A stretch of 64,000 nt of DNA from Gammaproteobacteria bacterium (GTDB taxonomy: Bacteria; Pseudomonadota; Gammaproteobacteria; Natronospirales; JAJUFS01). This document shows positions 4,985-63,273 of the stretch, piece by piece. Location of the stretch: assembly GCA_036381715.1 (NCBI GenBank), contig DASVCH010000069.1, positions 2,208 through 66,207 of the forward strand, given 5' to 3'. Positions within the stretch are counted from its first letter, which is position 1. The number at the start of each line of letters is the position of its first letter. Under the pieces are notes generated by a model. The model worked only from the letters and a program-made list of their open reading frames with translations, was not told the origin of the DNA and made no database searches. The position numbers and the translations under genes are program-made.

Positions 4985-6811
4985 TCAGTGTTTTCGTTTC
5001 TTCGGCAGATACAGATCCGTCAGCGTGCCTTCGAACGCTTCCGCGGCGAAACACACCGTTTCCGACAATGTCGGGTGCGGGTGAATCGTGAGGCCGATAT
5101 CGGCCGCGTCGCAGCCCATCTCGACCGCCAGCGCGACTTCCGCGATCAGCTCGCCCGCGTTCGGTCCGACCATCGCGCCGCCAAGCACGCGTTCGGTCTT
5201 CGGATCGAACAGCAGCTTGGTGAAACCTTCATCGCGGCCCAGCGACAGCGAGCGGCCGGATGCCGCCCACGGGAACTTGCCGACTTCGTACGCGACCCCG
5301 TCCTTCTTCGCCTGCTCTTCCGTCAGGCCGACCCACGCGACTTCCGGATCCGTGTAGGCGACGGAAGGAATCACGCGCGCATCGAAGAAACGCTTCTCGC
5401 CGGCGCACACTTCCGCCGCGACCTTGCCCTCGTGCGTCGCCTTGTGCGCGAGCATGGGCTGGCCGACGATGTCGCCGATCGCGAAGATGTGTTCGACATT
5501 CGTGCGCATCTGCTTGTCGACCTTGATGAAGCCGCGTTCGTCCGCGTCGATGCCCGCCTTGTCCGCGTCGATCCGCTTTCCGTTGGGTACGCGGCCAACT
5601 GCAACGAGCACGCGGTCGAACAACTGGTCGGAACCGGGCGCATTCTTCCCGTCGAACGACACCTTGATGCCGTTCTTCTGCGCCTTCATTTCCGTCACCT
5701 TCGTGCCGGTCATGATGTTCGCGTAGCGCGCCTTGATGCGTTTCTCCAGCGGTCGCACCAGGTCCTTGTCCGCGCCGGGCATCAATTGATCCGCGAGCTC
5801 GACGACGGTGACTTCCGAACCGAGCGCATCATAAACGCAAGCCATTTCGAGACCGATGATGCCGCCGCCGATCACGAGCAGTCTTTCCGGGACATCCTTC
5901 AGCTCCAGCGCGCCGGTGGAATCCATGACGCGCTCGTCGTCCGGCGCAAACGGCAGTTTCACCGGTTCGGAACCGGCCGCGATGATGCACTTCTCGAACC
6001 GGATGACCTGCCGGCTTCCTTCATTGTCGACTTCGAGGTGATGTGCACCGGCGAACTTTCCCGAACCGGTGACGACGTTCACCTTGCGCTGCTTCGCCAT
6101 GGTGGCAAGACCGCCGGTGAGCTTCTTCACCACGTCGCCTTTCCAGCCGACGAGCTTCTTCGCATCGATTCTCGGTTTGCCGAACTCGACGCCGAATTCC
6201 GACATGTGCGCGGCCTCGTCGATCACCTTGGCCGCGTGCAGCAAGGCCTTCGACGGAATGCAGCCGACATTCAGGCACACGCCGCCCAGCGAATCCCAGC
6301 GCTCGACCAGCGTCACTTTCAGGCCGAGATCCGCGGCGCGAAACGCCGCCGTGTAACCGCCCGGGCCGGCGCCCAGCACCAGTACCTCGGTTTCGAGATC
6401 GACCTTGCCCTGGTAATCATCGGCTTTCGGAGCAGAAACTTCCTTCTCCCCCTCACTCCGGCCCTCTCCCCGGGGGGGAGAGGGAGATTCTTCGCCAGCC
6501 CTTGCGGCGGTACTTGGCGCTTCGGCTTGCGGCTCTTCCTTCGACTTTCGACTTTCGACTTTCGACGCTTCCGTGGCTTCGACAATCGCGATCACGCTGC
6601 CTTCCGAAACCTTGTCGCCGACCTTGACCTTCATTTCCTTGATCGTGCCGGCCTGCGGCGCAGGAACGTCCATTGCCGCCTTGTCGGTTTCGAGCGTGAT
6701 CAGCGGCGTTTCCTTCTCGACCGCGTCACCCGCCTTCACGAGCACGTCGATGATTTCGACGTTCTCGAAGTCGCCGATGTCGGGAACCTTTATTTCGATT
6801 TCACTTGGCAT
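4985..6811 (-). CDS. lpdA: Dihydrolipoyl dehydrogenase (E3) with N-terminal lipoyl domain
   Basis: 608 aa. Lipoyl domain (LETDKAAMDVPAP), charged linker, then GAGPGGY and the redox disulfide GGVCLNVGCIPSKALL. Last gene of the aceE-aceF-lpd string. Confidence 0.95.
   Translation of the reverse strand: MPSEIEIKVPDIGDFENVEIIDVLVKAGDAVEKETPLITLETDKAAMDVPAPQAGTIKEMKVKVGDKVSEGSVIAIVEATEASKVESRKSKEEPQAEAPSTAARAGEESPSPPRGEGRSEGEKEVSAPKADDYQGKVDLETEVLVLGAGPGGYTAAFRAADLGLKVTLVERWDSLGGVCLNVGCIPSKALLHAAKVIDEAAHMSEFGVEFGKPRIDAKKLVGWKGDVVKKLTGGLATMAKQRKVNVVTGSGKFAGAHHLEVDNEGSRQVIRFEKCIIAAGSEPVKLPFAPDDERVMDSTGALELKDVPERLLVIGGGIIGLEMACVYDALGSEVTVVELADQLMPGADKDLVRPLEKRIKARYANIMTGTKVTEMKAQKNGIKVSFDGKNAPGSDQLFDRVLVAVGRVPNGKRIDADKAGIDADERGFIKVDKQMRTNVEHIFAIGDIVGQPMLAHKATHEGKVAAEVCAGEKRFFDARVIPSVAYTDPEVAWVGLTEEQAKKDGVAYEVGKFPWAASGRSLSLGRDEGFTKLLFDPKTERVLGGAMVGPNAGELIAEVALAVEMGCDAADIGLTIHPHPTLSETVCFAAEAFEGTLTDLYLPKKRKH
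6445..6486. repeat. GC palindrome element (CCCTCTCCCC-GGG-GGGGAGAGGG) inside the lpd linker coding region
   Basis: Perfect 10-bp arms at 6462..6484. Translated in frame as SPPRGEGRSEGE. Confidence 0.8.
6539..6566. repeat. Four heptamer units (CTTCGAC, TTTCGAC x3) inside the lpd linker
   Basis: Counted by hand. Translated on the minus strand as SKVESRKSK. Confidence 0.8.
6570..6811. repeat. Lipoyl-domain coding repeat, copy in lpd
   Basis: Direct repeat of 8010..8251 at an offset of 1440 nt. Positions 6731..6793 versus 8171..8233 show 63 nt with a single mismatch. Confidence 0.85.
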
Positions 6812-6854
6812 TCACGGAACTCCGAAGATTCATTCTTCGTCGAATAAAATGATG

Positions 6855-6911
6855 GTGAGAGGTAAGAAGTAAGAGGATGAAAGCCGCGTATTCCATCCTC
6901 TCACTTCTCAC
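6855..6911. repeat. Heptamer-based imperfect inverted repeat in the aceF-lpd spacer
   Basis: GTGAGAG GTAAGAA GTAAGAG GATG, then a 14-nt loop, then CATCCTCTCACTTCTCAC. It overlaps the aceF stop. Confidence 0.75.
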
Positions 6912-8251
6912 AACACGAGGTTACGCCGTTCTGCAAGCACTTCGGCCAGGAACGTCGTGAAGCGCGCCGCAGCGGCGCCGTCAATGATGCGGTGATCGTA
7001 GGACAGCGACAGCGGCAGCATGAGGCGCGGCATGAACTTCTTGCCGTTCCACACCGGTTTCATCTGCGCCTTCGAGACGCCAAGGATCGCGACTTCGGGC
7101 GCGTTCACGATCGGCGTGAAATACGTGCCGCCGATGGAGCCGAGCGAGGAAATCGAAAAGCACCCGCCCTGCATGTCGGCCGCTTTCAGCTTGCCGTTGC
7201 GCGCCTTCTCGGACAGATCGCCCAGCTCCTTGCCGATCTCGAAGATGTCCTTTTTGTCGGCGTCGCGCACCACCGGCACGACCAGGCCGCCCGGCGTATC
7301 GACGGCGAAGCCGATGTGAAAATATTTCTTGAATACCTGCTGCTCGCCATCCGGCGACAGCGAGCTGTTGAAGTTCGGGAACTCCTGCAGCGCCTGCACG
7401 CAGGCCTTGATGACGAAGGTCAGCGGCGTGAGCTTCGCGCCGACTTTCTCGGCGTCGGACTTCAGCGCCTTGCGCATGGATTCGAGTTCGGTGATGTCGG
7501 CCTCGTCGTGCTGGGTGACGTGCGGCACGTTCACCCACGCGGCGTGCAGGCGCGGGCCGGAAATCTTCTTGATGCGCGGCAGCGGTTTCGTTTCGATTTC
7601 GCCGAACTTGCCGAAATCGACTTCGTGGACCTGCGGCAGGCCGGCGCCTCCTGGCGCGCCTCCCGAACGCATGACGGATTTCACGAAACCCTTCACGTCC
7701 TCGTGCGTGATGCGCCCCTTGATGCCGGAACCGTTCACCTTGCCGAGATCGACGCCGAGCTCGCGCGCGAACTTGCGCACCGAGGGCGAGGCGTGCGCCT
7801 TCGAGAAGGATTCCTCGTTCACTGCAGGCAGGTCGGCAGAAGGACGAACGGCTTCCTGCGTGCCTTCCCCCTCACCCCGGCCCTCTCCCCGGAGGGGAGA
7901 GGGAGGCGCTTCGTTGACCTCTGCAACAGGTTTCGGCGCTTCGACTTGCGGTTCTTCTTCCTTCTCCCTTATCCCTTCTTCCTGTTCCTTGTCCTTCGAC
8001 TTCGACTCGTCCCCGGCTTCCAGCACCGCGATCACCGTCCCTTCGGACACCTTGTCGCCGTTACCGACCTTCATCTCCACGATCTTCCCGGCCGCCGGCG
8101 ACGGCACGTCCATCGCGGCCTTGTCGGTTTCCAGCGTGATGAGCGGCGTTTCCTTTTCGACAGTGTCGCCCGCCTTCACGAGCACGTCGATGATCTCGAC
8201 GTTCTCGAAGTCGCCGATGTCGGGAACCTTTATCTCAAACTTGTCAGCCAT
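6908..8251 (-). CDS. aceF: Dihydrolipoamide acetyltransferase (pyruvate dehydrogenase E2)
   Basis: ORF 6908..8269 trimmed to the ATG at 8251 (MADKFEIKVPDIG, GGAG RBS). One lipoyl domain, an E3-binding domain (ASPSVRKFARELGVDL) and a catalytic SYDHRIIDGA motif. Confidence 0.95.
   Translation of the reverse strand: MADKFEIKVPDIGDFENVEIIDVLVKAGDTVEKETPLITLETDKAAMDVPSPAAGKIVEMKVGNGDKVSEGTVIAVLEAGDESKSKDKEQEEGIREKEEEPQVEAPKPVAEVNEAPPSPLRGEGRGEGEGTQEAVRPSADLPAVNEESFSKAHASPSVRKFARELGVDLGKVNGSGIKGRITHEDVKGFVKSVMRSGGAPGGAGLPQVHEVDFGKFGEIETKPLPRIKKISGPRLHAAWVNVPHVTQHDEADITELESMRKALKSDAEKVGAKLTPLTFVIKACVQALQEFPNFNSSLSPDGEQQVFKKYFHIGFAVDTPGGLVVPVVRDADKKDIFEIGKELGDLSEKARNGKLKAADMQGGCFSISSLGSIGGTYFTPIVNAPEVAILGVSKAQMKPVWNGKKFMPRLMLPLSLSYDHRIIDGAAAARFTTFLAEVLAERRNLVL
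7865..7905. repeat. Second copy of the GC palindrome element (CCCTCTCCCC-GGA-GGGGAGAGGG) inside the aceF linker coding region
   Basis: Perfect 10-bp arms at 7881..7903. Translated in frame as SPLRGEGRGEGEG. Confidence 0.8.
7954..8007. repeat. Degenerate pyrimidine heptamer run (CTTCTTC CTTCTCC CTTATCC CTTCTTC CTGTTCC ...TTCGAC TTCGAC) inside the aceF linker
   Basis: Read directly. Translated on the minus strand as ESKSKDKEQEEGIREKEEE. Confidence 0.7.
8010..8251. repeat. Lipoyl-domain coding repeat, copy in aceF
   Basis: See the copy at 6570..6811. The protein N-termini are nearly identical (E/IKVPDIGDFENVEIIDVLVKAGD.VEKETPLITLETDKAAMDVP). Confidence 0.85.
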
Positions 8252-8296
8252 TCGTGGGCTCCGAAGCATTTCGTTTTGCCGAGTATTTTTTGCTTC

Positions 8297-8369
8297 GTGA
8301 GAGGTGAGAAGTAAGAGGTGAGAGGACTAAAGCGGCCTGCCCTCTCACTGCTCACCTCTTACCTCTCAC
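8297..8369. repeat. Heptamer-based inverted repeat in the aceE-aceF spacer
   Basis: GTGAGAG GTGAGAA GTAAGAG GTGAGAG, then a 16-nt loop, then CCTCTCA CTGCTCA CCTCTTA CCTCTCA. Confidence 0.8.
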
Positions 8370-8374
8370 TTTTC

Positions 8375-11071
8375 TTATGCCAGCCACGGATGCGGCTTGT
8401 CCGCATCGATGCCGAGCTTCTTCATGGCGTCCTTGACGGTCTTCATTTCGATCGCGCCATCATCCGCCAGCGCCCTGAGCGCGGCGAACGCCACATGCCT
8501 GCGATCGACTTCGAAGAAGCGGCGCAACTGTTCGCGCGAATCCGAGCGACCGAAACCGTCCGTGCCCAGTGCGACGTAGCGGCGCGGCACCCAGGGCCGG
8601 ATCTTGTCCGCGAAGGCGCGCATGTAATCGCTCGCGGCGATGACGGGGCCTTCAGTCTTCTCGAGCTGTTGCGTGACCCAGGGCAGTTTCGGTTTCTTGT
8701 CGGGGTTCAGCAGGTTCCAGCGGTCCGCGTTCATGCCGTCGCGGCGCAGCTCCGTGAAACTGGTCGCGCTCCACACGTCGGCGGCAATGCCGAAATCCTT
8801 CTCGAGGATTTCGGCCGCGGCCTCGACCTCGCGAAGAATGGTGCCGGAACCCAGCAGCTGCACGCGCGCCTTTGCCTTCTTCTGCGCGGAAGTCCTCAAG
8901 GAATACATGCCCTTGAGAATGCCTTCGTCGGCACCTTCCGGTTTCGCCGGATGACGGTAGTTCTCGTTCATCAGCGTGATGTAATAGAAGACGTCTTCGT
9001 GGTCTTCGTACATCCGCTTCAGGCCGTCGCGCAGGATCACGGCAAGCTCGTAGGAATACGTCGGATCGTAGGCGACGCAATTCGGAATCGTCGCGGCGAG
9101 AATGTGGCTGTGGCCGTCCTCGTGCTGCAGGCCTTCGCCATTCAGCGTGGTCCGTCCCGCCGTCGCGCCCAGCAGGAAGCCGCGCGCGCGCATGTCGCCG
9201 GCCGCCCAGGCGAGATCTCCTATGCGCTGGAAGCCGAACATGGAATAGAAGATATAGAAAGGAATCGTCGTGACACCGTGGTTCGCGTACGACGTCGCCG
9301 CCGCGATCCAGGACGACATCGAACCCGCCTCGGTGATGCCCTCTTCCAGCATCTGGCCCTGCTTGTCCTCGCGGTAGAACATCAGCTGGTCCGCGTCCTG
9401 CGGTTCGTAGAGCTGGCCTTTCGAGGAATAGATGCCGTACTGGCGGAACAGGCTTTCCATGCCGAAGGTGCGCGCCTCGTCCGGCACGATCGGCACGATG
9501 CGCTTGCCGATGTCCTTGTTCCTGAGCAGCGCGGTCAGCATGCGCACGAAGGCCATGGTCGTGGAGATTTCGCGCTCGCCCGTGTCTTCGAGCTGCTGTT
9601 TGAACGCATCGAGTCCGGGAATGGCGAGCTTTTCGTTGTTCGGCAGGCGCTTCGGCAGGTAGCCGCCCAGCTTCTCGCGGTGCTCCTGCAGGTACTGGTA
9701 CTCGCGGCTGTCCTTCTCGAAGGTCAGGAACGGCACCTTGCCGGAATCGATGTCCTCGTCGGAGACCGGCAGGTTGAAACGATCGCGCACCCACTTGAGA
9801 TCGTCGGCGTCGAGTTTCTTCTTCTGGTGCGCGCCCATCGTGCCCTGCACGGACGCGCCAAGGCCGAAACCTTTCACGGTCTTGGCGAGAATCACCGTCG
9901 GCTGGCCGTGGTTGCCGTTCACCGCGCGGTCGTACGCCGCATAGACCTTGCGCGCATCGTTGCCGCCGCGGTTGAGTTTCCAGATTTCCTCGTCGGACAT
10001 GTGCGCGACCATTTCCTTGAGTTCCGGGTAACGGCCGAAGAAATGTTCGCGCACGTACGCGCCGTCGCGCGACTTGAAGGTCTGGTATTCGCCATCGACG
10101 CATTCTTCCATCACGCGGCGCAGCAGGCCTTTCCGGTCCTGCGCCAGCAGCGGATCCCAGCGCGAACCCCACAGCACCTTGAGCACGTGCCAGCCCGTGC
10201 CGCGGAAGTCGGATTCCAGTTCCTGGATGACCTTGCCGTTGCCGCGCACCGGGCCGTCGAGCCGCTGCAGGTTGCAGTTGATGACGAACACGAGGTTGTC
10301 GAGTTTCTCGCGCACGGCGAGCGAGATGGCGCCGCGCGATTCCGGTTCGTCCATTTCGCCGTCGCCGAGGAAGGCCCAGACCTTGCGGCTGTTCGGTTCT
10401 ATCAAGCCACGCGCTTCAAGATATTTCATGAAGCGTGCGTGGTAGATCGCCATGATCGGGCCGAGGCCCATGGAGACGGTCGGGAACTGCCAGTATTCCG
10501 GCATCAGCCAGGGATGCGGGTACGACGAGAGTCCCTTGCCATCGACTTCCTCGCGGAAGTTGTTCAGCTGCTCTTCCGTCAGGCGGCCTTCCAGGAAGGA
10601 GCGCGCGTAGATGCCCGGCGAGGAATGACCCTGGATGTAGATGAGATCGCCGCGATTTTCTGCCGACGCGCCCTTCCAGAAATGATTGAAGCCGACTTCA
10701 TACAACTGCGCGGCGGAGGCGTAGGTCGCGATGTGTCCGCCGAGTTCCGTGCCCTTGCGGTTCGCGTTGACCACCATGGCCACCGAATTCCAGCGGATGT
10801 ACGCCTCGATGCGCTTCTCGATCTCGCGATCGCCGGGGTATTGCGGCTCCTGGTGATTCGGGATCGTGTTGAGGTACGCGGTTTCGGCGGAATACGGCAG
10901 GTAGGCGCCCTGGCGGCGCGCATGATCGACAAGCTGCTCAAGGAGAAAATGCGCGCGCTCCGCGCCGTGCACGCTCAGGGTCGCATCGAGCGACTCCAGC
11001 CATTCCTGCGTCTCCTGGGGGTCCACGTCGTGACGTTCGTGCGCGTCCTGGACGTTTTTCTTGTCGGCCAT
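8375..11071 (-). CDS. aceE: Pyruvate dehydrogenase E1 component (homodimeric type)
   Basis: 898 aa. The opening MADKKNVQDAHERHDVDPQETQEWLESL and the overall length match AceE. It sits upstream of aceF. Confidence 0.95.
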   Translation of the reverse strand: MADKKNVQDAHERHDVDPQETQEWLESLDATLSVHGAERAHFLLEQLVDHARRQGAYLPYSAETAYLNTIPNHQEPQYPGDREIEKRIEAYIRWNSVAMVVNANRKGTELGGHIATYASAAQLYEVGFNHFWKGASAENRGDLIYIQGHSSPGIYARSFLEGRLTEEQLNNFREEVDGKGLSSYPHPWLMPEYWQFPTVSMGLGPIMAIYHARFMKYLEARGLIEPNSRKVWAFLGDGEMDEPESRGAISLAVREKLDNLVFVINCNLQRLDGPVRGNGKVIQELESDFRGTGWHVLKVLWGSRWDPLLAQDRKGLLRRVMEECVDGEYQTFKSRDGAYVREHFFGRYPELKEMVAHMSDEEIWKLNRGGNDARKVYAAYDRAVNGNHGQPTVILAKTVKGFGLGASVQGTMGAHQKKKLDADDLKWVRDRFNLPVSDEDIDSGKVPFLTFEKDSREYQYLQEHREKLGGYLPKRLPNNEKLAIPGLDAFKQQLEDTGEREISTTMAFVRMLTALLRNKDIGKRIVPIVPDEARTFGMESLFRQYGIYSSKGQLYEPQDADQLMFYREDKQGQMLEEGITEAGSMSSWIAAATSYANHGVTTIPFYIFYSMFGFQRIGDLAWAAGDMRARGFLLGATAGRTTLNGEGLQHEDGHSHILAATIPNCVAYDPTYSYELAVILRDGLKRMYEDHEDVFYYITLMNENYRHPAKPEGADEGILKGMYSLRTSAQKKAKARVQLLGSGTILREVEAAAEILEKDFGIAADVWSATSFTELRRDGMNADRWNLLNPDKKPKLPWVTQQLEKTEGPVIAASDYMRAFADKIRPWVPRRYVALGTDGFGRSDSREQLRRFFEVDRRHVAFAALRALADDGAIEMKTVKDAMKKLGIDADKPHPWLA

Positions 11072-16917: not shown

Positions 16918-17315
16918 AACGCATCATGGTTGTCGTCGCGGACCGGAAAGGACTGATCGCCGATCTCAGCGAACTGCTGGAGCGTCACGGCGTGAACATC
17001 AACGCCATCGATGCCGCCGACGAAAACGGCACCGCATACATCACGCTCGAAGTGGACCGTTACGACGAAACGCTGAACCTGCTGCGGGATTCCGAATACC
17101 AGGCCGTGCCCGAAGAAGTGGTGGTCATCCGCATCGAGGACCGGCCCGGCGGACTGGCGCGCATCGCGCGGCGCCTGGCGGAAAACGACGTCGCGATCCG
17201 CGGCATGACCATGCTGCAGCGGGCGAACGGCTGGTGCGCGGTTGCGGTGGCGACGGATGACAACGGCCGGTGCCGGGAAGTGCTGGCGGATTGCGTGATC
17301 GAGTCGAAGGCCTGA
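16914..17315 (+). CDS. Tandem ACT-domain protein
   Basis: 133 aa. ATGA overlap with the decarboxylase gene. Two ACT-like halves (IMVVVADRKGLIADLSELLERHGVNI; VVIRIEDRPGGLARIARRLAENDVAI). Confidence 0.75.
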   Translation: MKRIMVVVADRKGLIADLSELLERHGVNINAIDAADENGTAYITLEVDRYDETLNLLRDSEYQAVPEEVVVIRIEDRPGGLARIARRLAENDVAIRGMTMLQRANGWCAVAVATDDNGRCREVLADCVIESKA

Positions 17316-17322
17316 AGTGAAG

Positions 17323-17357
17323 GTCGAAGGTCGAAGGTCGAAGGTCGAAAGTCGAAA
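17323..17357. repeat. Purine heptamer arm: GTCGAAG x3, GTCGAAA x2
   Basis: Starts 8 nt after the ACT-gene stop and runs into the terminator hairpin. Confidence 0.85.
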
Positions 17358-17359
17358 GC

Positions 17360-17386
17360 AAAAAGGCCGGCGATGCCGGCTTTTTT
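17360..17386. terminator. Bidirectional intrinsic terminator between the ACT-domain gene and grxD
   Basis: AAAAA-GGCCGGC-GAT-GCCGGC-TTTTTT, flanked by heptamer arms. Confidence 0.65.
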
Positions 17387-17469
17387 CTTTCGCCTTTTCG
17401 CCACAAAAGCGAAAGCAATGGACAGGATTAACAGGATTTCATTTCATCAGGGCGGGCTTTGCCCGCCGC
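17387..17469. repeat. Mosaic module with AATGGACAGGATTAACAGGATTT and a GGCGGGC-TTT-GCCCGCC hairpin
   Basis: Alignable by eye with 41632..41711 and, more loosely, 62948..63036. Confidence 0.7.
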
Positions 17470-17504
17470 CTTTCGCCTTTCGCCTTTCGCCTTTCGCCTT
17501 TCGA
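17470..17504. repeat. Pyrimidine heptamer array: CTTTCGC x4, CTTTCGA x1
   Basis: Ends 2 nt before the grxD stop codon. Reads as GCGAAAG-type purine units in the grxD sense. Confidence 0.85.
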
Positions 17505-17506
17505 CC

Positions 17507-17821
17507 TTACTTGACGGATTCCGCCAGCAGTTTCCTGAGCTCCCCCGACTCGTACATCTCTATCACGATGTCGCTGCCGCCGATGAGTTCGCCGTTCACG
17601 TAAAGCTGCGGAATGGTCGGCCAGTTGGAATACTGCTTGATGCCTTCGCGGATTTCCTGGTCGTCCAGCACATTCACGTAACCGAACGGCGTGCCGCAGG
17701 CGTTCAACGCGGCCACGGCGCGCGCGGAGAATCCGCACTGCGGAAAATCCGGCGTGCCTTTCATGTAAAGCAGGACGGGATTGTCGCCAACCTGCTGCCT
17801 GATGCGTTCCTGTACATTCAT
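17507..17821 (-). CDS. grxD: Monothiol glutaredoxin (Grx4 family)
   Basis: ATG at 17821 (MNVQERI...). CGFS active site (PQCGFS) and the WPTIPQLYV motif. Confidence 0.9.
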   Translation of the reverse strand: MNVQERIRQQVGDNPVLLYMKGTPDFPQCGFSARAVAALNACGTPFGYVNVLDDQEIREGIKQYSNWPTIPQLYVNGELIGGSDIVIEMYESGELRKLLAESVK

Positions 17822-22402: not shown

Positions 22403-22406
22403 CAGA

Positions 22407-22523
22407 GTCGAAAGTCGAAGGTCCAAAGTCGAAAGTAAAAAAGCCGCGCGTTGCGCGGCTTTTTTTTGACCTTCGACCTTCAGCTCTCAACCTTCGACTT
22501 TCGATTTTCGATTTTCGACTTCC
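22407..22523. repeat. Complete heptamer hairpin element: 5 purine units, terminator core, 8 pyrimidine units
   Basis: GTCGAAA GTCGAAG GTCCAAA GTCGAAA GTAAAAA, then the core, then GACCTTC GACCTTC AGCTCTC AACCTTC GACTTTC GATTTTC GATTTTC GACTTCC. Confidence 0.85.
22436..22467. terminator. Bidirectional intrinsic terminator between fadE and the GGDEF-EAL gene
   Basis: AAAAAA-AGCCGCGC-GTT-GCGCGGCT-TTTTTTT. It forms the core of the 22407..22523 heptamer hairpin element. Confidence 0.7.
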
Positions 22524-25038
22524 CCTCGAGCGCCAGCCAATCGCCGCATTCGTCCGCCGTCATCGGCCGGCTGAACAGGAAGCCTTGCATCAGCCAGCAG
22601 CCTTCGTCCTGCAGCCAGCGCAGCTGCGCTTCGTCCTCGACACCCTCGGCGATGACGTCCAGCCCCAATGAGCGCGCAAGACCGATCGTCGCGCGCGCGA
22701 TCGCGGCGTCGTGCGCGTCCTTGCGAAGATCGTGCACGAACGAACGGTCGATCTTGATGATGTCGACAGGAAAGCGTTTCAGGTAACTCAGCGAGGAATT
22801 CCCGGTGCCGAAATCGTCGAGCGCAAGCTTGCAGCCCATCGCCTTGAGATCCTCCAGCAGCACCAGGGTCGATTCACCTTCGCCGAGCGCAAGCGTTTCG
22901 GTGATTTCCAGCAGCAGTGCGTTCGCCGGCAGGCCGGTTTCCGCCAGCACCACGTCAACCAGCGCGGGCACATTGCGGATGATGAACTGGCCGACGGAAA
23001 GATTGACGGCCATGTGAAACCCGTGGTGGTACTGCTCGCGCCAGCGACAGGCCTGGCGGCAGGCTTCGCGCAGCACCCATTCGCCGATCTGCGGGATAAG
23101 GCCGGTTTCCTCGGCGAGCGGAATGAACTCCTGCGGCGAAACCAGTCCGCGCAGCGGGTGTCGCCAGCGCACGAGCGCTTCGATACCGACCGTCTCGCCC
23201 GTGGCGGTGTCGACCTGCGGCTGGTAGACCAGCATGAACTCGTCACGCTGCAAGGCCCTGCGGAGATCGTTCTCGCGCTCAAGACGCTCCATCGCCTGAA
23301 CGTGCATGTCGTGGGTGAAGAAGCGGTAATGATTGCGGCCGCCCTGCTTTACCCGGTACATCGCCGTGTCCGCATTCTGGAGCAGCATCTCGGCGTCAAC
23401 GCCGTCGTTCGGATACAGCGCGATGCCGATGGAACATGTCAGCGCGATGTCGTTTTCCGCCAGTACCAGAGGTTCGGAAACGGTTTCGAGAATGCGTTCG
23501 CAGACGGCGATGACGACATCGATATCTTCCAGTTCGTCGAGTATCACCGTGAACTCGTCGCCGCCGAGGCGGGCCACGGTGTCGGACTTGCGTACGCAGC
23601 GCATCAGGCGCTTGGCGATCGCGCGCAGCACGCGGTCGCCGACATGATGGCCGAGCGAGTCGTTGACGCTCTTGAAGCGGTCGACGTCCACGAACAGCAA
23701 GGCGATCTCGCGATTCGAACGCTGCGCCTTTGTCAGCGCATGCGAAAGCCGGTCATGAAACATCGAGCGATTCGGCAGCGAGGTCAGGCGATCGAAATTT
23801 GCGAGGTGCTGCAGTTGTTCCTGCGCCTGCTGTCTTCCCGACGCCGCCATCGCCAGCGACAGGAAATCCGCCAGCGAGCTTGCGAACATGCGCTCGTCGC
23901 GCGACCAGTGACGCGGCAAGCCGACATGCTCCATCACGATGAGGCCGCGCACCTTGCCGTCGTGGCGAAACGGTGCGCCGAGGAGCGCACTGACCCGGTA
24001 TGGCGCGAGATAATTCATCATGAACGGCTGTACGCGCCTGTCCGACTGCACGTCGGCCACGGCGAAGGTGCGCATGCGCTCCAGCCGGCGTGTCGCATGC
24101 GCCTGCGGCGCGTTGCCGAGCACGATGCCGGGCGCGGCATCGTGATAGCCGTTGTCGTAAAGATGCACGCAACGAAATTCGGCGAACGCGGAATCGCAGA
24201 ACCAGATGCTGACACGGGTGCACTGTATCGCCTGCGCCGCCTTTTCCGTCACGACGTTCAGCGCGCGCGACAGGTCGCCCGACGCGATCGCTTCTTCCTT
24301 GGCAAGATCGAGCAATACGTAACTTTGCTTGCGGCCCCGCCGCTCGCCGCGCCGGAGGGTCTTCTCCGCGTTGATGCGCGTGGTGACCTGCGCGTCGAAC
24401 TCTTCCGCCATGTCGGCGTAGGCGAATTGCGTTCGAAAGGCCTCCTGCATGTCGCCGCCCACGCGCCGCGCGACCACGGCGAGCATCGCAGCCACCGCGA
24501 GGCTCGCCACGCCGGCGACCATCGCAATGGCGGTGGACTGCAACAACAGCATGAACGCGACGGGAAGAATGCAGAACAACGCCGCGATGACGTAGCTGCG
24601 GTAATCGGCGGCGAGCAGCGGCACGGCCATCGCGGCCGTGCCCGCCAGCACTACCGCGAGCAATACCTGGTGAATGGCCGAGCCGTGCGGAAACAGGACG
24701 ACACCCGCCGCGCCCCAGCCCGCCGCGGACAGCACGTTGCCCGCCCGGAACAGCTGCAACCACCGCGGCGCGCGTTCGACAGCGACAGGGATGGCATGAA
24801 AACGTGCCGCGACGGCAAGCCGCACCGCTTCGACGCCGATGAACGCCGCGGCCCAGGCGTCCAGGTAACGTGCACCGGCATGCTCGCGGAACAAGGCCGC
24901 GAGCAGGACTATGACACCGATGGTGGTGAGGTGCGCGCCACGGGAATGCCGGAAAAGCCGGTTGACCAGCGCCGCGAGCGCCTTGGCTTCGATCGCCGGG
25001 TTGCTGACCCGGGGGTTGTTGACGGTCACGATGGCCAT
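22480..25038 (-). CDS. Membrane sensor with GAF, GGDEF and EAL domains
   Basis: ORF 22480..25077. The ATG at 25038 has GGAGGA upstream. Multi-TM N-terminus, GAF region, GGDEF site (RLGGDEFTV), EAL domain (EALVRW...DDFGTGNSSLSYL). The last 13 codons lie inside the heptamer repeat. Confidence 0.85.
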   Translation of the reverse strand: MAIVTVNNPRVSNPAIEAKALAALVNRLFRHSRGAHLTTIGVIVLLAALFREHAGARYLDAWAAAFIGVEAVRLAVAARFHAIPVAVERAPRWLQLFRAGNVLSAAGWGAAGVVLFPHGSAIHQVLLAVVLAGTAAMAVPLLAADYRSYVIAALFCILPVAFMLLLQSTAIAMVAGVASLAVAAMLAVVARRVGGDMQEAFRTQFAYADMAEEFDAQVTTRINAEKTLRRGERRGRKQSYVLLDLAKEEAIASGDLSRALNVVTEKAAQAIQCTRVSIWFCDSAFAEFRCVHLYDNGYHDAAPGIVLGNAPQAHATRRLERMRTFAVADVQSDRRVQPFMMNYLAPYRVSALLGAPFRHDGKVRGLIVMEHVGLPRHWSRDERMFASSLADFLSLAMAASGRQQAQEQLQHLANFDRLTSLPNRSMFHDRLSHALTKAQRSNREIALLFVDVDRFKSVNDSLGHHVGDRVLRAIAKRLMRCVRKSDTVARLGGDEFTVILDELEDIDVVIAVCERILETVSEPLVLAENDIALTCSIGIALYPNDGVDAEMLLQNADTAMYRVKQGGRNHYRFFTHDMHVQAMERLERENDLRRALQRDEFMLVYQPQVDTATGETVGIEALVRWRHPLRGLVSPQEFIPLAEETGLIPQIGEWVLREACRQACRWREQYHHGFHMAVNLSVGQFIIRNVPALVDVVLAETGLPANALLLEITETLALGEGESTLVLLEDLKAMGCKLALDDFGTGNSSLSYLKRFPVDIIKIDRSFVHDLRKDAHDAAIARATIGLARSLGLDVIAEGVEDEAQLRWLQDEGCWLMQGFLFSRPMTADECGDWLALEGKSKIENRKSKVES

Positions 25039-25198
25039 GCCGGACAGCGTCCTCCGTGAAGCCCGGGGACGCCGCAACGCGTCGGTGCGCTGCGTCAGGA
25101 GCTCCCCCCGGTGCCCTGCAGATTTATGTCAAGTCTAGCCGATTCACCCGTCGCAGCCACACTTGTCGCGCATTTTTTTCGACGGTACCGTGAAACGC

Positions 25199-25567: not shown

Positions 25568-25682
25568 GTCGAAAGTCGAAAGGCGAAAGGCGAAAGGCGA
25601 AAGGCGAAAAAAAAAGAAGCGAAAAGCGGAAAGTGAAAAGCCGCGCTTCGCGCGGTTTTCACTTTCGACCTTCGACTTCGCC
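25568..25682. repeat. Heptamer element: GTCGAAA x2, GGCGAAA x4, A-run, hairpin core, short CTTTCGA/CCTTCGA arm
   Basis: Starts 3 nt after the lipoprotein stop. The arms are asymmetric. Confidence 0.8.
25633..25662 (+). terminator. Hairpin terminator after the lipoprotein gene
   Basis: GTGAAAAGCCGCGC-TTC-GCGCGGTTTTCAC. Near-identical core to 22442..22460 and 62923..62941. Confidence 0.55.
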
Positions 25683-41545: not shown

Positions 41546-41631
41546 CTTCCTTCCGGGGCGCGACGACCAACAATCGGCCGCGGAGCGGCCTCCTACGAGA
41601 TTTCGCGTGTCCGGGGATGCGAGGCGCGAAC
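41546..41631. repeat. REP-like element, copy 2 (core hairpin at 41576..41590)
   Basis: Begins 9 nt after the monooxygenase stop. See 33179..33263. Confidence 0.8.
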
Positions 41632-41711
41632 GCTTTCGCCTTTCGCCACAAAAGCAATAGACAGGATTAACAGGATTTTTCAGGGTTCCTCAGCGCGGGC
41701 TTCGCCCGCCG
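41632..41711. repeat. Mosaic module: CTTTCGC x2, ACAAAAGC, AATAGACAGGATTAACAGGATTTTTCAGG, GCGGGC-TTC-GCCCGC hairpin
   Basis: Alignable with 17387..17469. Confidence 0.75.
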
Positions 41712-41837
41712 CTTTCGCCTTTCGCCTTTCGCCTTTCGCCTTTCGCCTTTCGCCTTTCGCCTTTCGCCTTTCGCCTTTCGCCTTTCGCCTTTCGCCTTTC
41801 GCCTTTCGACTTTCGACTTTCGACTTTCGACTTTCGA
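41712..41837. repeat. 18-unit pyrimidine heptamer array: CTTTCGC x13, CTTTCGA x5
   Basis: Counted unit by unit. All 18 units are perfect. Ends 9 nt before the stop of the GDPD-like gene. Confidence 0.95.
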
Positions 41838-41846
41838 CTGTCGTCT

Positions 41847-42890
41847 TCACCCTTCCCCGCACGCATTGACCGCGTACCGGTCCGCACCGTGATCGTGATC
41901 CAGCAGCACGCGTACTTCGGGTATCGCCGACAACTCCCGCAACAGTTGCACGTCATCCGGAATGTGATAGATGAACACCGGGACGCCGCCAAGCAGCTCG
42001 CGCGTCACCGGTCCGTAGATCGGTTCCCCGCGGTAGTAATAATTCATTCCGAGCACGTCAAAGTCGCCGAAATGAAAGAGCGCCTTGTAAAGGTTGATGA
42101 CGAACGGCGTCATGAAATGCCCGTCCGCCAGCGGCTGGATATCGAAAATGGTGCGAAAGCCGGCATCCCTGAAATGCGCGAGATGAAACGGCGTCGCGCC
42201 CTCGACGTAAATGCGGTTCTTCGCCATGCCGAGACCGTCCGCAATCTCGACCAGCCGCGCCGCGGCATCGGCGATCGCCTCGTCGCCGAGATGCCGCATG
42301 TGCTTGAAGTCCAGCCAGTAGAAATGTTCGCCGCCGACTTCGCGAAACAGTTTTTCCAGTGACAGGAGTTCGCCGTCCTTCAGGTCGTAGGGGAAGTTGT
42401 GCGACACGACGTATCGCGCAAGCTCGGGGTCGTAGAAGACGTCGATTTCCGCGCCCCGCGCGCCACGCTCGAACGCGAGCCTCACGGTAGCGATGCTGTT
42501 GCCGGCGGTGTGGTCGTTCACCGCCGCATCCAGCACCAGCCCGCGCGTCGCCCAGACCTTGTGGCAGTCCTTGTAGATTCCTTCGTAAGTCCTGGCCTGC
42601 AAGCCGCGATCCAGGAGCGCAACCGACGCATGCCAGGCGAACACAAGCAGCGCAACGGTCGAAACCGCGGCCAGCGGCAGCCGCCAGCGCGACTCCGCGT
42701 AAAGCGATGCGAAACAGGACAGAACAAAGAGCGGCACCAGCAACAGCACGACCAGCACATCAAGGAGGATGAGAGTCGCATCCGCGCTCAGTTGGACAAG
42801 TGCGACGAGAACAAGCAACGCCGCGGCAAGCAGCGCGAAAATCGCGGCAGGCTTCCGGAGATATTTCATTTTCACTCGCGAGCGAATCAT
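41847..42890 (-). CDS. Membrane-anchored glycerophosphodiester-phosphodiesterase-like protein
   Basis: 347 aa. N-terminal TM helices, then a GDPD/PI-PLC-X-like segment (WATRGL...[21 protein letters not shown]). ATGA overlap with the upstream LtaS-like gene. An alternative start exists at 42869. Confidence 0.6.
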
Positions 42891-51275: not shown

Positions 51276-51375
51276 AATGGACAGGATTTACAGGATTGAA
51301 GATGGATTGACAGGATTTAAAAGCAAACGCAAAAAATACTGTTAATCCTGAAAAATCCTGTCAATCCTGTCCATT
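51276..51375. repeat. AT-rich inverted repeat built from AATGGACAGGATT(T/G)ACAGGATT modules in the ribE-ribBA spacer
   Basis: Left arm 51276..51297. Right arm 51354..51375 (AATCCTGTCAATCCTGTCCATT) overlaps the last ribE codons. Further GGATTGACAGGATTT and AATCCTGAAAAATCCTG submodules lie between. Confidence 0.8.
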
Positions 51376-57150: not shown

Positions 57151-57171
57151 GAGTAAAGACTAAGGGGAAAG

Positions 57172-57248
57172 GTCGAAAGTCTAAAGTCGAAGGTCGAAAG
57201 TGAAGAGCGCCGGGTTCGCCTTTCGACCTTCGACCTTCGACTTTCGAC
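57172..57248. repeat. 29-bp-stem heptamer hairpin in the divergent HDAC-family / rimB-like promoter region
   Basis: GTCGAAAGTCTAAAGTCGAAGGTCGAAAG, a 19-nt loop, then CTTTCGACCTTCGACCTTCGACTTTCGAC. Two mismatches by hand alignment. Confidence 0.85.
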
Positions 57249-57263
57249 CCGGTTCTTCCTGCT

Positions 57264-63119: not shown

Positions 63120-63273
63120 CTTTCGCCTTTCGCCTTTCGCCTTCTCCCTTCTCCCTTCTCCCTTCTCCCTTCTCCCTTCTCCCTTCGACCTTCGACCTTC
63201 TCCCTTCGACCTTCGACCTTCGACCTTCGACCTTCGACCTTCGACCTTCGACCTTCGACCTTCGACCTTCGAC
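63120..63273. repeat. 22-unit mosaic pyrimidine heptamer array: CTTTCGC x3, CTTCTCC x6, CTTCGAC x2, CTTCTCC x1, CTTCGAC x10
   Basis: Counted unit by unit: 154 nt with no phase break. Ends 22 nt upstream of the MASE1 gene ATG. Confidence 0.95.

Follow-up and report, generated by a model that had tools for sequence, protein, structure and literature searches.

Repeat families read in frame in the lipoyl linkers of AceF and Lpd of an uncultured gammaproteobacterium

The pyruvate dehydrogenase operon and its repeat-bearing linkers

The DNA analysed here (the window) is a 64-kb stretch with 64% GC from the metagenome-assembled genome (MAG) of an uncultured gammaproteobacterium, and it contains the pyruvate dehydrogenase (PDH) operon aceE-aceF-lpd, with aceE as the first gene and all three genes on the minus strand (Table 1). 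AceF (E2) consists of one lipoyl domain, a linker, an E3-binding domain and a catalytic domain, with a likely true start at the ATG at 8251 (MADKF...), and Lpd (E3) carries its own N-terminal lipoyl domain followed by a linker ahead of the FAD domain. The proteins are 100% identical to NCBI MAG proteins P0001 and P0121, respectively, and their nearest named relatives (Natronospira and AB-CW1) are ~62–68% identical. Each of the two linkers includes, in its coding sequence, a short tract of heptamers and a copy of the triplex motif (TM), a repeat also called BoxC or PIT; pattern search and translation placed the palindromes and heptamer tracts, and the peptides that they encode, just as an earlier note on this DNA had given them.

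Perfect palindromes with 10-bp arms lie at 6462–6484 (lpd) and 7881–7903 (aceF), and a search of the 64 kb at up to three mismatches returned these two matches, both in linkers (0 expected), and no intergenic copy. The earlier note had described a two-armed palindrome; the arms are indeed perfect, but a third block (CCCTCACCCC / GGGGTGAGGG) had been overlooked, and together with it the palindrome makes up a three-block triplex motif. TM is defined as three consecutive blocks, with a second loop of TTA in type A and CCG in type B (PMC4666352). Both linker copies have a pyrimidine block CCCTCTCCC, a purine block GGGAGAGGG and a reverse-Hoogsteen block GGGTGAGGG, each of ~9–10 nt and all on one strand, with a first loop of 3 nt and a second loop of CC(G), that is, type B (1–6 nt being allowed). 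Judged by its sequence, the linker palindrome is a complete type B copy of the pan-bacterial BoxC/PIT/TM intrastrand-triplex repeat. The lpd and aceF copies are identical at 35 of 37 positions, with one mismatch in block 3 of the lpd copy. The motif is free of stop codons in five of the six reading frames, and the frame used in the linkers encodes PSP..GEG(R)GEG, a peptide suited to a linker by its high content of Pro, Ser and Gly and of charged residues.

The heptamers, by comparison, belong to families that are abundant in the window (75 matches to a two-unit probe, with 0.6 expected), all with units of the form CTTNNNC/GNNNAAG (CTTCGAC, CTTTCGC, CTTCTCC and others). Of 11 perfect runs with a 7-nt period and a length of 21 nt or more, ten are found in the ~9.4 kb of intergenic DNA, and the sole one inside an open reading frame (ORF) is the lpd linker tract. 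The earlier claim that both linkers are encoded by heptamer runs stands for this perfect lpd tract but not, as one clean run, for aceF, where two unit families are combined in a degenerate tract (on the coding strand, five GGAGAAG-like units followed by two of GTCGAAG; 7954–7988 on the plus strand is (CTTCTYC)x~5 at 82% identity). A long compound intergenic array of the window also contains both of these families, and their order and orientation there match those in the linker. Lag-7 matching reached 0.79 in the lpd linker and 0.75 in the aceF linker, values obtained in 0 of 5,000 shuffles, and did not exceed 0.46 in the K/E linkers of relatives; the 7-nt period is therefore not a by-product of K/E codons, and it points to an origin of the tracts at the DNA rather than the peptide level. 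The proposal that the linkers are built from intergenic repeat material accordingly fits the heptamers of both linkers, which share families and order with the intergenic arrays, and does not fit the palindrome, which lacks an intergenic copy in the window and so is not intergenic repeat material of this genome here.

Although the earlier note handled the two linkers as separate cases, they are parts of paralogous lipoyl–linker modules that align over ~420 nt at 83% nucleotide identity (82% in the lipoyl domain, 61% in the linker before the TM, 35 of 37 positions in the TM and 55% after it). The pre-TM linker includes a block identical at 21 of 23 positions that encodes EEPQxEAP, and both linkers have a common layout of heptamers, EEPQxEAP and TM. 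Within a genome, AceF and Lpd lipoyl domains are 0.77–0.87 alike, compared with 0.65–0.77 for paralogues between distant genomes, and the two paralogues have lineage-specific residues in common (for example, GNFKDVDVIEV at the related locus L003), which together indicate concerted evolution of the modules.

Table 1. Features of the window discussed in the text
Feature	Position	Strand	Remarks
aceE (E1)	8375–11071	-	ORF; synteny with PDH_E1 genes at the related loci L001–L003 and L126
aceF (E2, dihydrolipoyllysine acetyltransferase)	6908–8269	-	ORF; match to P0001 (447 aa, 100% identity)
lpd (E3, dihydrolipoyl dehydrogenase)	4985–6811	-	ORF; 100% match to P0121; Pfam Biotin_lipoyl and Pyr_redox
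aceF lipoyl and linker module	7850–8251	-	Paralogous to 6430–6811
lpd lipoyl and linker module	6430–6811	-	Paralogous to 7850–8251
TM in aceF linker, type B	7867–7903	-	Coding strand CCCTCTCCCC-TCC-GGGGAGAGGG-CC-GGGGTGAGGGGG; peptide PSPLRGEGRGEG
TM in lpd linker	6448–6484	-	Coding strand CCCTCTCCCC-CCC-GGGGAGAGGG-CC-GGAGTGAGGGGG; peptide PSPPRGEGRSEG
lpd heptamer tract	6540–6566	-	Plus strand (TTCGACT)x3.9, 100%; coding strand (GTCGAAA)3 GTCGAAG; encodes SKVESRKSK
aceF heptamer tract	7954–8007	-	Plus strand (CTTCTYC)x~5, then CTTCGACTTCGAC; peptide ESKSKDKEQEEGIREKEEE
Compound intergenic array	63120–63273	+	(CTTTCGC)3(CTTCTCC)6(CTTCGAC)2 CTTCTCC (CTTCGAC)10
Inverted arrays around an intrinsic-terminator hairpin	22406–22519		Intergenic; (GTCGAAR)n - AAAAAAGCCGCGCGTTGCGCGGCTTTTTTTT - (YTTCGAC)n

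Patchy distribution in relatives and in-frame copies elsewhere

Orthologous AceF/Lpd loci were retrieved at 67–86% identity (L001, the closest relative, and L002, L003 and L126), and the repeats proved to be patchily distributed among these loci and sister lineages. Both linkers of the window carry a heptamer tract and a TM in reverse orientation. At L001, the AceF linker is an ordinary K/E/P linker with neither repeat, and the Lpd linker encodes KVESRKS and bears a TM in the opposite orientation; its tract (CCGAAAG TCGAAAG TCGGAAG TCGGAAG) is orthologous to that of the window and degenerate, with the same unit count (~4). Neither linker of L002 has either repeat. The AceF linker of L003 holds two TMs, one each way, together with short heptamer runs of that genome's own family, which are also present in its Lpd linker, while L126 combines a heptamer tract (GCGAAAG ATAAAAG TCGAAAG TCTAAAG) and a reverse TM in AceF with a forward and reverse TM pair in Lpd. 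The repeats recur in frame in four independent assemblies, and carriers are interleaved on a tree of the Lpd catalytic domain with lineages that have plain A/P/K/E linkers. Linkers rich in K and E were usual in this clade among the relatives compared, contrary to the earlier suggestion that charged linkers are out of the ordinary beside Ala/Pro-rich ones.

The history of the repeats in this clade is dynamic, with gain, loss and conversion. As only Lpd carries heptamers and a TM at L001, conversion from lpd to aceF in the lineage of the window is the simplest history, and we infer from it the direction and timing of a transfer in which the repeat-bearing module probably passed from lpd to aceF. 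TMs in the linkers may have originated by repeated insertion, by inversion in situ or by differential loss from an old inverted pair, and the opposite orientation at L001 fits each of these. A composite element resembling miniature inverted-repeat transposable elements was considered for the forward and reverse TM pairs, which lie 114 bp apart in aceF of L003 and lpd of L126, and was rejected, the interiors of the pairs being unrelated. No transposase was found among the flanking genes of the PDH loci examined (L001–L003 and L126).

Beyond these relatives, a 47-nt query from the window had matches in 5,421 of the 5,426 complete genomes of E. coli (median, 11 places per genome), with copies 95–98% identical over 41 nt and no annotated feature beneath the best 10 matches. 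Direct comparison with the window identified a copy (CCCCTCACCCCGGCCCTCTCCCCGGAGGGGCGAGGGAG) in the trmL-lldD spacer of strain K-12, and the aceF TM, which is comparable to TMECO #3 of PMC4666352, contains HPG2 exactly. Strain MG1655 has 23 TM copies that are 'always located intergenically' (Holder et al. 2015, PMC4666352), and HPG1 and HPG2, which are the same sequences, were described as occurring 'only within intergenic regions' (Kaplan et al. 2016, PMC5100583). Both window copies, in contrast, are in frame inside aceF and lpd; intergenic location characterizes the E. coli copies without being part of the structural definition of TM.

To place these copies more widely, we used a cross-phylum scan, with one genome per species, that comprised at least 120 stretches with TM and 132 TM matches sampled in them. 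Among the matches listed, the motif is near-identical in Alpha-, Beta-, Gamma- and Deltaproteobacteria, Chloroflexi, Planctomycetes, Verrucomicrobia, Acidobacteria and others. At least 11 of the 132 sampled copies (~8%) are in frame in Pfam-verified genes from several phyla, mostly between domains or in loops or linkers: CheA (in the P1–P2 linker), VgrG, PriA, LigA, MetH, GlnE, Glf, RlmN, a YgiQ radical-SAM protein, a DEAH helicase and a GH106 protein (loci L074, L087, L069, L033, L120, L041, L078, L102, L053, L086 and L110). These copies outside PDH linkers use several reading frames, and the one in Glf forms a clean 13-aa loop insertion relative to solved UDP-galactopyranose mutases. Two TM copies were observed within one linker at L086. 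Translated, in-frame copies are apparently a new, unreported behaviour of this well-known repeat.

Heptamers are likewise translated elsewhere. A metagenome scan with the 27-mer (GTCGAAA)3GTCGAA gave, among the matches listed, many tracts of ~4 units that are in frame in conserved enzymes, including the Pol I 5'-exonuclease, IleRS, LeuRS, aconitase, HypB, ManC, PGM, a Mur ligase–Alr fusion and an RluA-like protein (loci L163, L215, L234, L188, L229, L223, L162, L168 and L170). The contigs span 30–73% GC, often with arrays of other heptamer units adjoining, and we rejected both a discrete 30-nt element and an artefact as explanations because the tracts come from unrelated sources and GC contexts; the peak of tract lengths at 30–33 nt reflects a fixed-register 27-mer query that samples a decaying length distribution. 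Within the window, the C-terminal tail of the GAF-GGDEF-EAL protein (ORF 22480–25077, minus strand) is array-encoded, as the earlier note had held in pointing to coding of the KVESRKSK type. The EAL domain ends at residue 838 of 865, and the 27-residue tail (..GKSKIENRKSKVES) has its last ~13 residues (..KSKIENRKSKVES) encoded by the array, so that here an array has lengthened a C-terminus or taken the place of one. The array concerned is the right-hand one of a terminator-flanking pair and overlaps the 3' end of the gene at 22480–22530.

Several further observations concern the arrays of the window. Inverted pairs of the form (GTCGAAR)n ... (YTTCGAC/CTTTCGC)n bracket intrinsic-terminator hairpins with A- and T-tracts at 17303–17510, 22406–22519, 25570–25677 and 57155–57249, and such arrays could make the stem of the terminator tens of base pairs longer. 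Very long compound arrays of ~19–20 units are present at 41712–41847 (CTTTCGC to CTTCGAC) and 63120–63273 (CTTTCGC to CTTCTCC to CTTCGAC), with abrupt switches of unit family that suggest mutation of a unit followed by local expansion. An element of ~95 nt, containing GACAGGATTAACAGGATTT and a GCGGGCTTYGCCCGC hairpin, occurs in two copies at 86% identity (17385–17470 and 41630–41712), directly upstream of (CTTTCGC)n arrays. The motif (ACAGGATT)2 has three further copies in inverted arrangement at 51280–51371 (five matches to the pattern, 0 expected) and corresponds to no Rfam family. Inside the operon, the aceE-aceF spacer (8270–8374) and the aceF-lpd spacer (6812–6907) contain inverted heptamers (GTGAGAG x4 ... 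CTCTCAC/CTTCTCA) that form hairpins, for which Rfam returned only chance miRNA-like matches; the array in the aceE-aceF spacer is kept at L001 (9883–9957), and L003 has another heptamer there (GCACGCA x4). Relatives have one or two extra small genes between aceF and lpd, such as Glyoxalase_6 (L001, 11322–11948; L003, 11474–11854; L126, 8991–10020), in place of which the window has the 96-nt heptamer-hairpin spacer.

Origin and possible roles of the linker repeats

Two origins had been offered in the earlier note, namely that repeats invaded a tolerant linker or that linker-like sequence seeded the repeats. The second fails, because a motif that is near-identical in E. coli and many phyla cannot have been seeded by this linker; the first agrees with heptamers of the same families as the intergenic arrays and with a palindrome that is a bona fide copy of an E. 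coli intergenic repeat. We therefore consider it likely that repeat DNA entered or expanded at places where almost any sequence will serve the protein as long as it is flexible and soluble, that in-frame, stop-free copies survived there, and that conversion spread them, the encoded peptide serving as a spacer. Under this proposal, the 37-nt TM repeat would have become part of the coding sequence of both disordered lipoyl linkers, and short tracts of the genome's dominant CTTNNNC/GNNNAAG families would have been embedded upstream of it, giving a peptide rich in K, E, S and R. Only in-frame, stop-free versions of the repeats would have passed the filter, and they would persist because the linkers need only be long, flexible and soluble. 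Gene conversion between the aceF and lpd lipoyl modules would then have copied the arrangement, which is the simplest account of the layout that both linkers have in common, and we infer that the repeat-encoded peptide has no role beyond that of a spacer.

Four observations weigh against this proposal. Between the two window linkers, conservation of the TM (35 of 37 positions) greatly exceeds that of its flanks (61% and 55%), so that conversion of whole modules is insufficient alone and an extra ingredient is called for, whether a second, short conversion tract at a later time, separate insertions at matching sites or the intrinsic constraint that the motif displays everywhere. Independent insertions in aceF and lpd are judged less likely than one origin followed by conversion, and it is the same disparity in conservation that lends them what probability they have. 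All eight PDH-linker TMs use the PSP..GEG frame, compared with several frames elsewhere (4 of the first 10 verified use PSP..GEG), which may point to a peptide under selection, or to copies of common descent instead of copies captured at random. Every TM in ~150 kb (the window and the related loci, all of them PDH-centred) is located in a PDH linker, which could mean more than passive tolerance. Finally, insertion as the way in which TM spreads is itself deduced rather than observed; no mobility genes were found in association with TM, which has been linked to local genomic instability (PMC4666352).

A further reading, which we hold to be possible if unlikely, is that an active process puts TM and heptamer arrays into coding DNA as discrete units across bacteria, and that in this gammaproteobacterial clade PSP..GEGRGEG was co-opted as a module of lipoyl linkers, with conversion shuffling it between the aceF and lpd genes. 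If this were true, loops and linkers would keep clean sites with and without the insert, which may reveal the target rules and the spread mechanism of a repeat unexplained since the 1990s.

It seems improbable that the repeats were selected for a function of the nucleic acid, in which the GC-rich TM hairpin in the mRNA would slow ribosomes after the lipoyl domain to assist folding, or a triplex or hairpin would modulate transcription of aceE-aceF-lpd. The RNA hairpins predicted for the two TMs are stable (-30.3 and -25.0 kcal/mol), yet their z-scores relative to shuffles are only -1.05 and -0.59, such that the stability is largely compositional; neither the TM nor the heptamer regions were significant, and Rfam searches, permissive on the operon and in gathering mode on the whole window, gave chance miRNA-like matches and no family. 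Although the TM is always in the inter-domain linker, recurs in the PDH linkers of several lineages and keeps its arms perfectly in both paralogues while the flanks have diverged, it also occurs in both orientations, sister lineages are entirely without it, and its conservation is pan-bacterial whatever its location. Published tests were negative as well: neither promoter nor terminator activity was found in earlier tests cited in PMC4666352, nor was there an effect on RNA polymerase (PMC4666352).

We also give little chance to the possibility that PSP..GEGRGEG is itself a selected linker module, derived from a TM that was exapted once, spread by gene conversion or horizontal transfer and was repeatedly lost. 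The use of one frame by eight of eight PDH-linker copies would favour such a module, as would the demonstrable concerted evolution and a layout of heptamers, ~45 nt and a reverse TM in the window aceF, the window lpd and the L126 aceF. However, the element is patchily distributed and the nearest sisters have plain linkers, TMs differ from one linker to another in position and orientation, and the interiors between paired TMs are not conserved; in addition, the identity to intergenic E. coli copies extends over positions that would be synonymous, so that the constraint is apparently on the DNA and not on the peptide.

Phase variation, with slippage by one unit of the lpd tract shifting the frame of E3 and toggling lipoyl-Lpd, is very unlikely. 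The unit is not a multiple of three, the 27-nt tract is perfect, and the frameshift hazard raised in the earlier note does exist in principle. Yet the tract has only ~4 units and the same unit count in L001, where it has degenerated, as opposed to the long, length-polymorphic simple-sequence repeats (SSRs) of contingency loci; moreover, lpd is a housekeeping gene, and short tracts of this sort are also read in frame in proteins for which phase variation is not to be expected, among them IleRS, LeuRS and aconitase. Coincidental low-complexity coding sequence or an assembly artefact, suggested by the compositional bias of the linkers and by data from MAGs, is effectively refuted by the expectation of 0 palindrome matches, by a period of 7 seen neither in 5,000 shuffles nor in relatives' linkers, by a 41-nt match to E. 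coli at 95–98% that is not compositional, by recurrence in frame in four independent assemblies and by repeats shorter than typical assembly k-mers. The functional alternatives (a pause or regulatory hairpin, an exapted peptide and a phase switch) thus find little support, and it is the single frame in PDH linkers, together with the very high conservation of the TM, that best keeps a more interesting reading alive.

Known systems and significance

The window copies have the same blocks (CCCTCTCCC - loop - GGGAGAGGG - CCG - GGGTGAGGG) and the type B loop of BoxC/PIT/TM(ECO) and HPG1/HPG2; whereas TM in E. coli was reported to be exclusively intergenic, the window copies, and those in no fewer than 11 further genes from various phyla, are translated in frame. 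A likeness of mechanism, not of membership, can be drawn by analogy to the Rickettsia palindromic elements (RPE), reportedly first described by Ogata et al. in 2000. Like the RPE (described in PMC1779305), TM is a palindromic interspersed repeat found between genes and in frame at permissive sites (for RPE, in PheT for example): it is intergenic in E. coli and many phyla, with frame-keeping copies within ORFs in the PDH linkers and at least 11 genes. Unlike TM, which is ~37 nt long and pan-bacterial with a predicted triplex or hairpin, RPE are 100–150 bp, confined to Rickettsiales and presumably unrelated in sequence.

Intergenic heptanucleotide repeats are also known from cyanobacteria as short tandemly repeated repetitive (STRR) sequences. 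TAACTGA arrays of this intergenic kind occur in Beggiatoaceae (PMC4679880), and heptameric SSR enrichment has been noted (PMC4692102). The window heptamers resemble the Beggiatoaceae and STRR arrays in being abundant, tandem and mostly between genes, with several unit variants per genome, and differ in their units (CTTNNNC/GNNNAAG), in their inversion around intrinsic terminators and in the short tracts that lie in a coding frame. In simple-sequence contingency loci, such as those of Haemophilus (PMC12721329), as in lpd, a tract lies within an ORF and has a unit length not divisible by three, although the lpd tract is not long enough for such a locus, keeps its unit count from one relative to the next and belongs to a housekeeping gene.

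The linkers that join the lipoyl domains of E. coli E2p are Ala/Pro-rich flexible tethers. Those of the window have the same position and presumably the same tether role, and are instead rich in K, E, S, R, G and P, a composition set in part by repeat DNA and not by codons for Ala and Pro.

Known element families, together with a principle already established, account for most of the finding. BoxC/TM is among the most widely conserved non-coding bacterial repeats, and it is found here translated in essential enzymes, where it adds a second, pan-bacterial case to the RPE paradigm of selfish DNA in genes and provides insertion sites with exact boundaries in conserved genes for tracing how the motif moves. 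The heptamers demonstrate that 7-nt repeat tracts can become fixed in frame in housekeeping proteins, and, for annotation, the two repeats explain odd 'SPSP..GEGRGEG' and 'KVESRKSK' peptides in conserved proteins. The AceF and Lpd linkers are, in this respect, an example of how selfish or slippage-prone DNA can survive where the protein tolerates almost any sequence.

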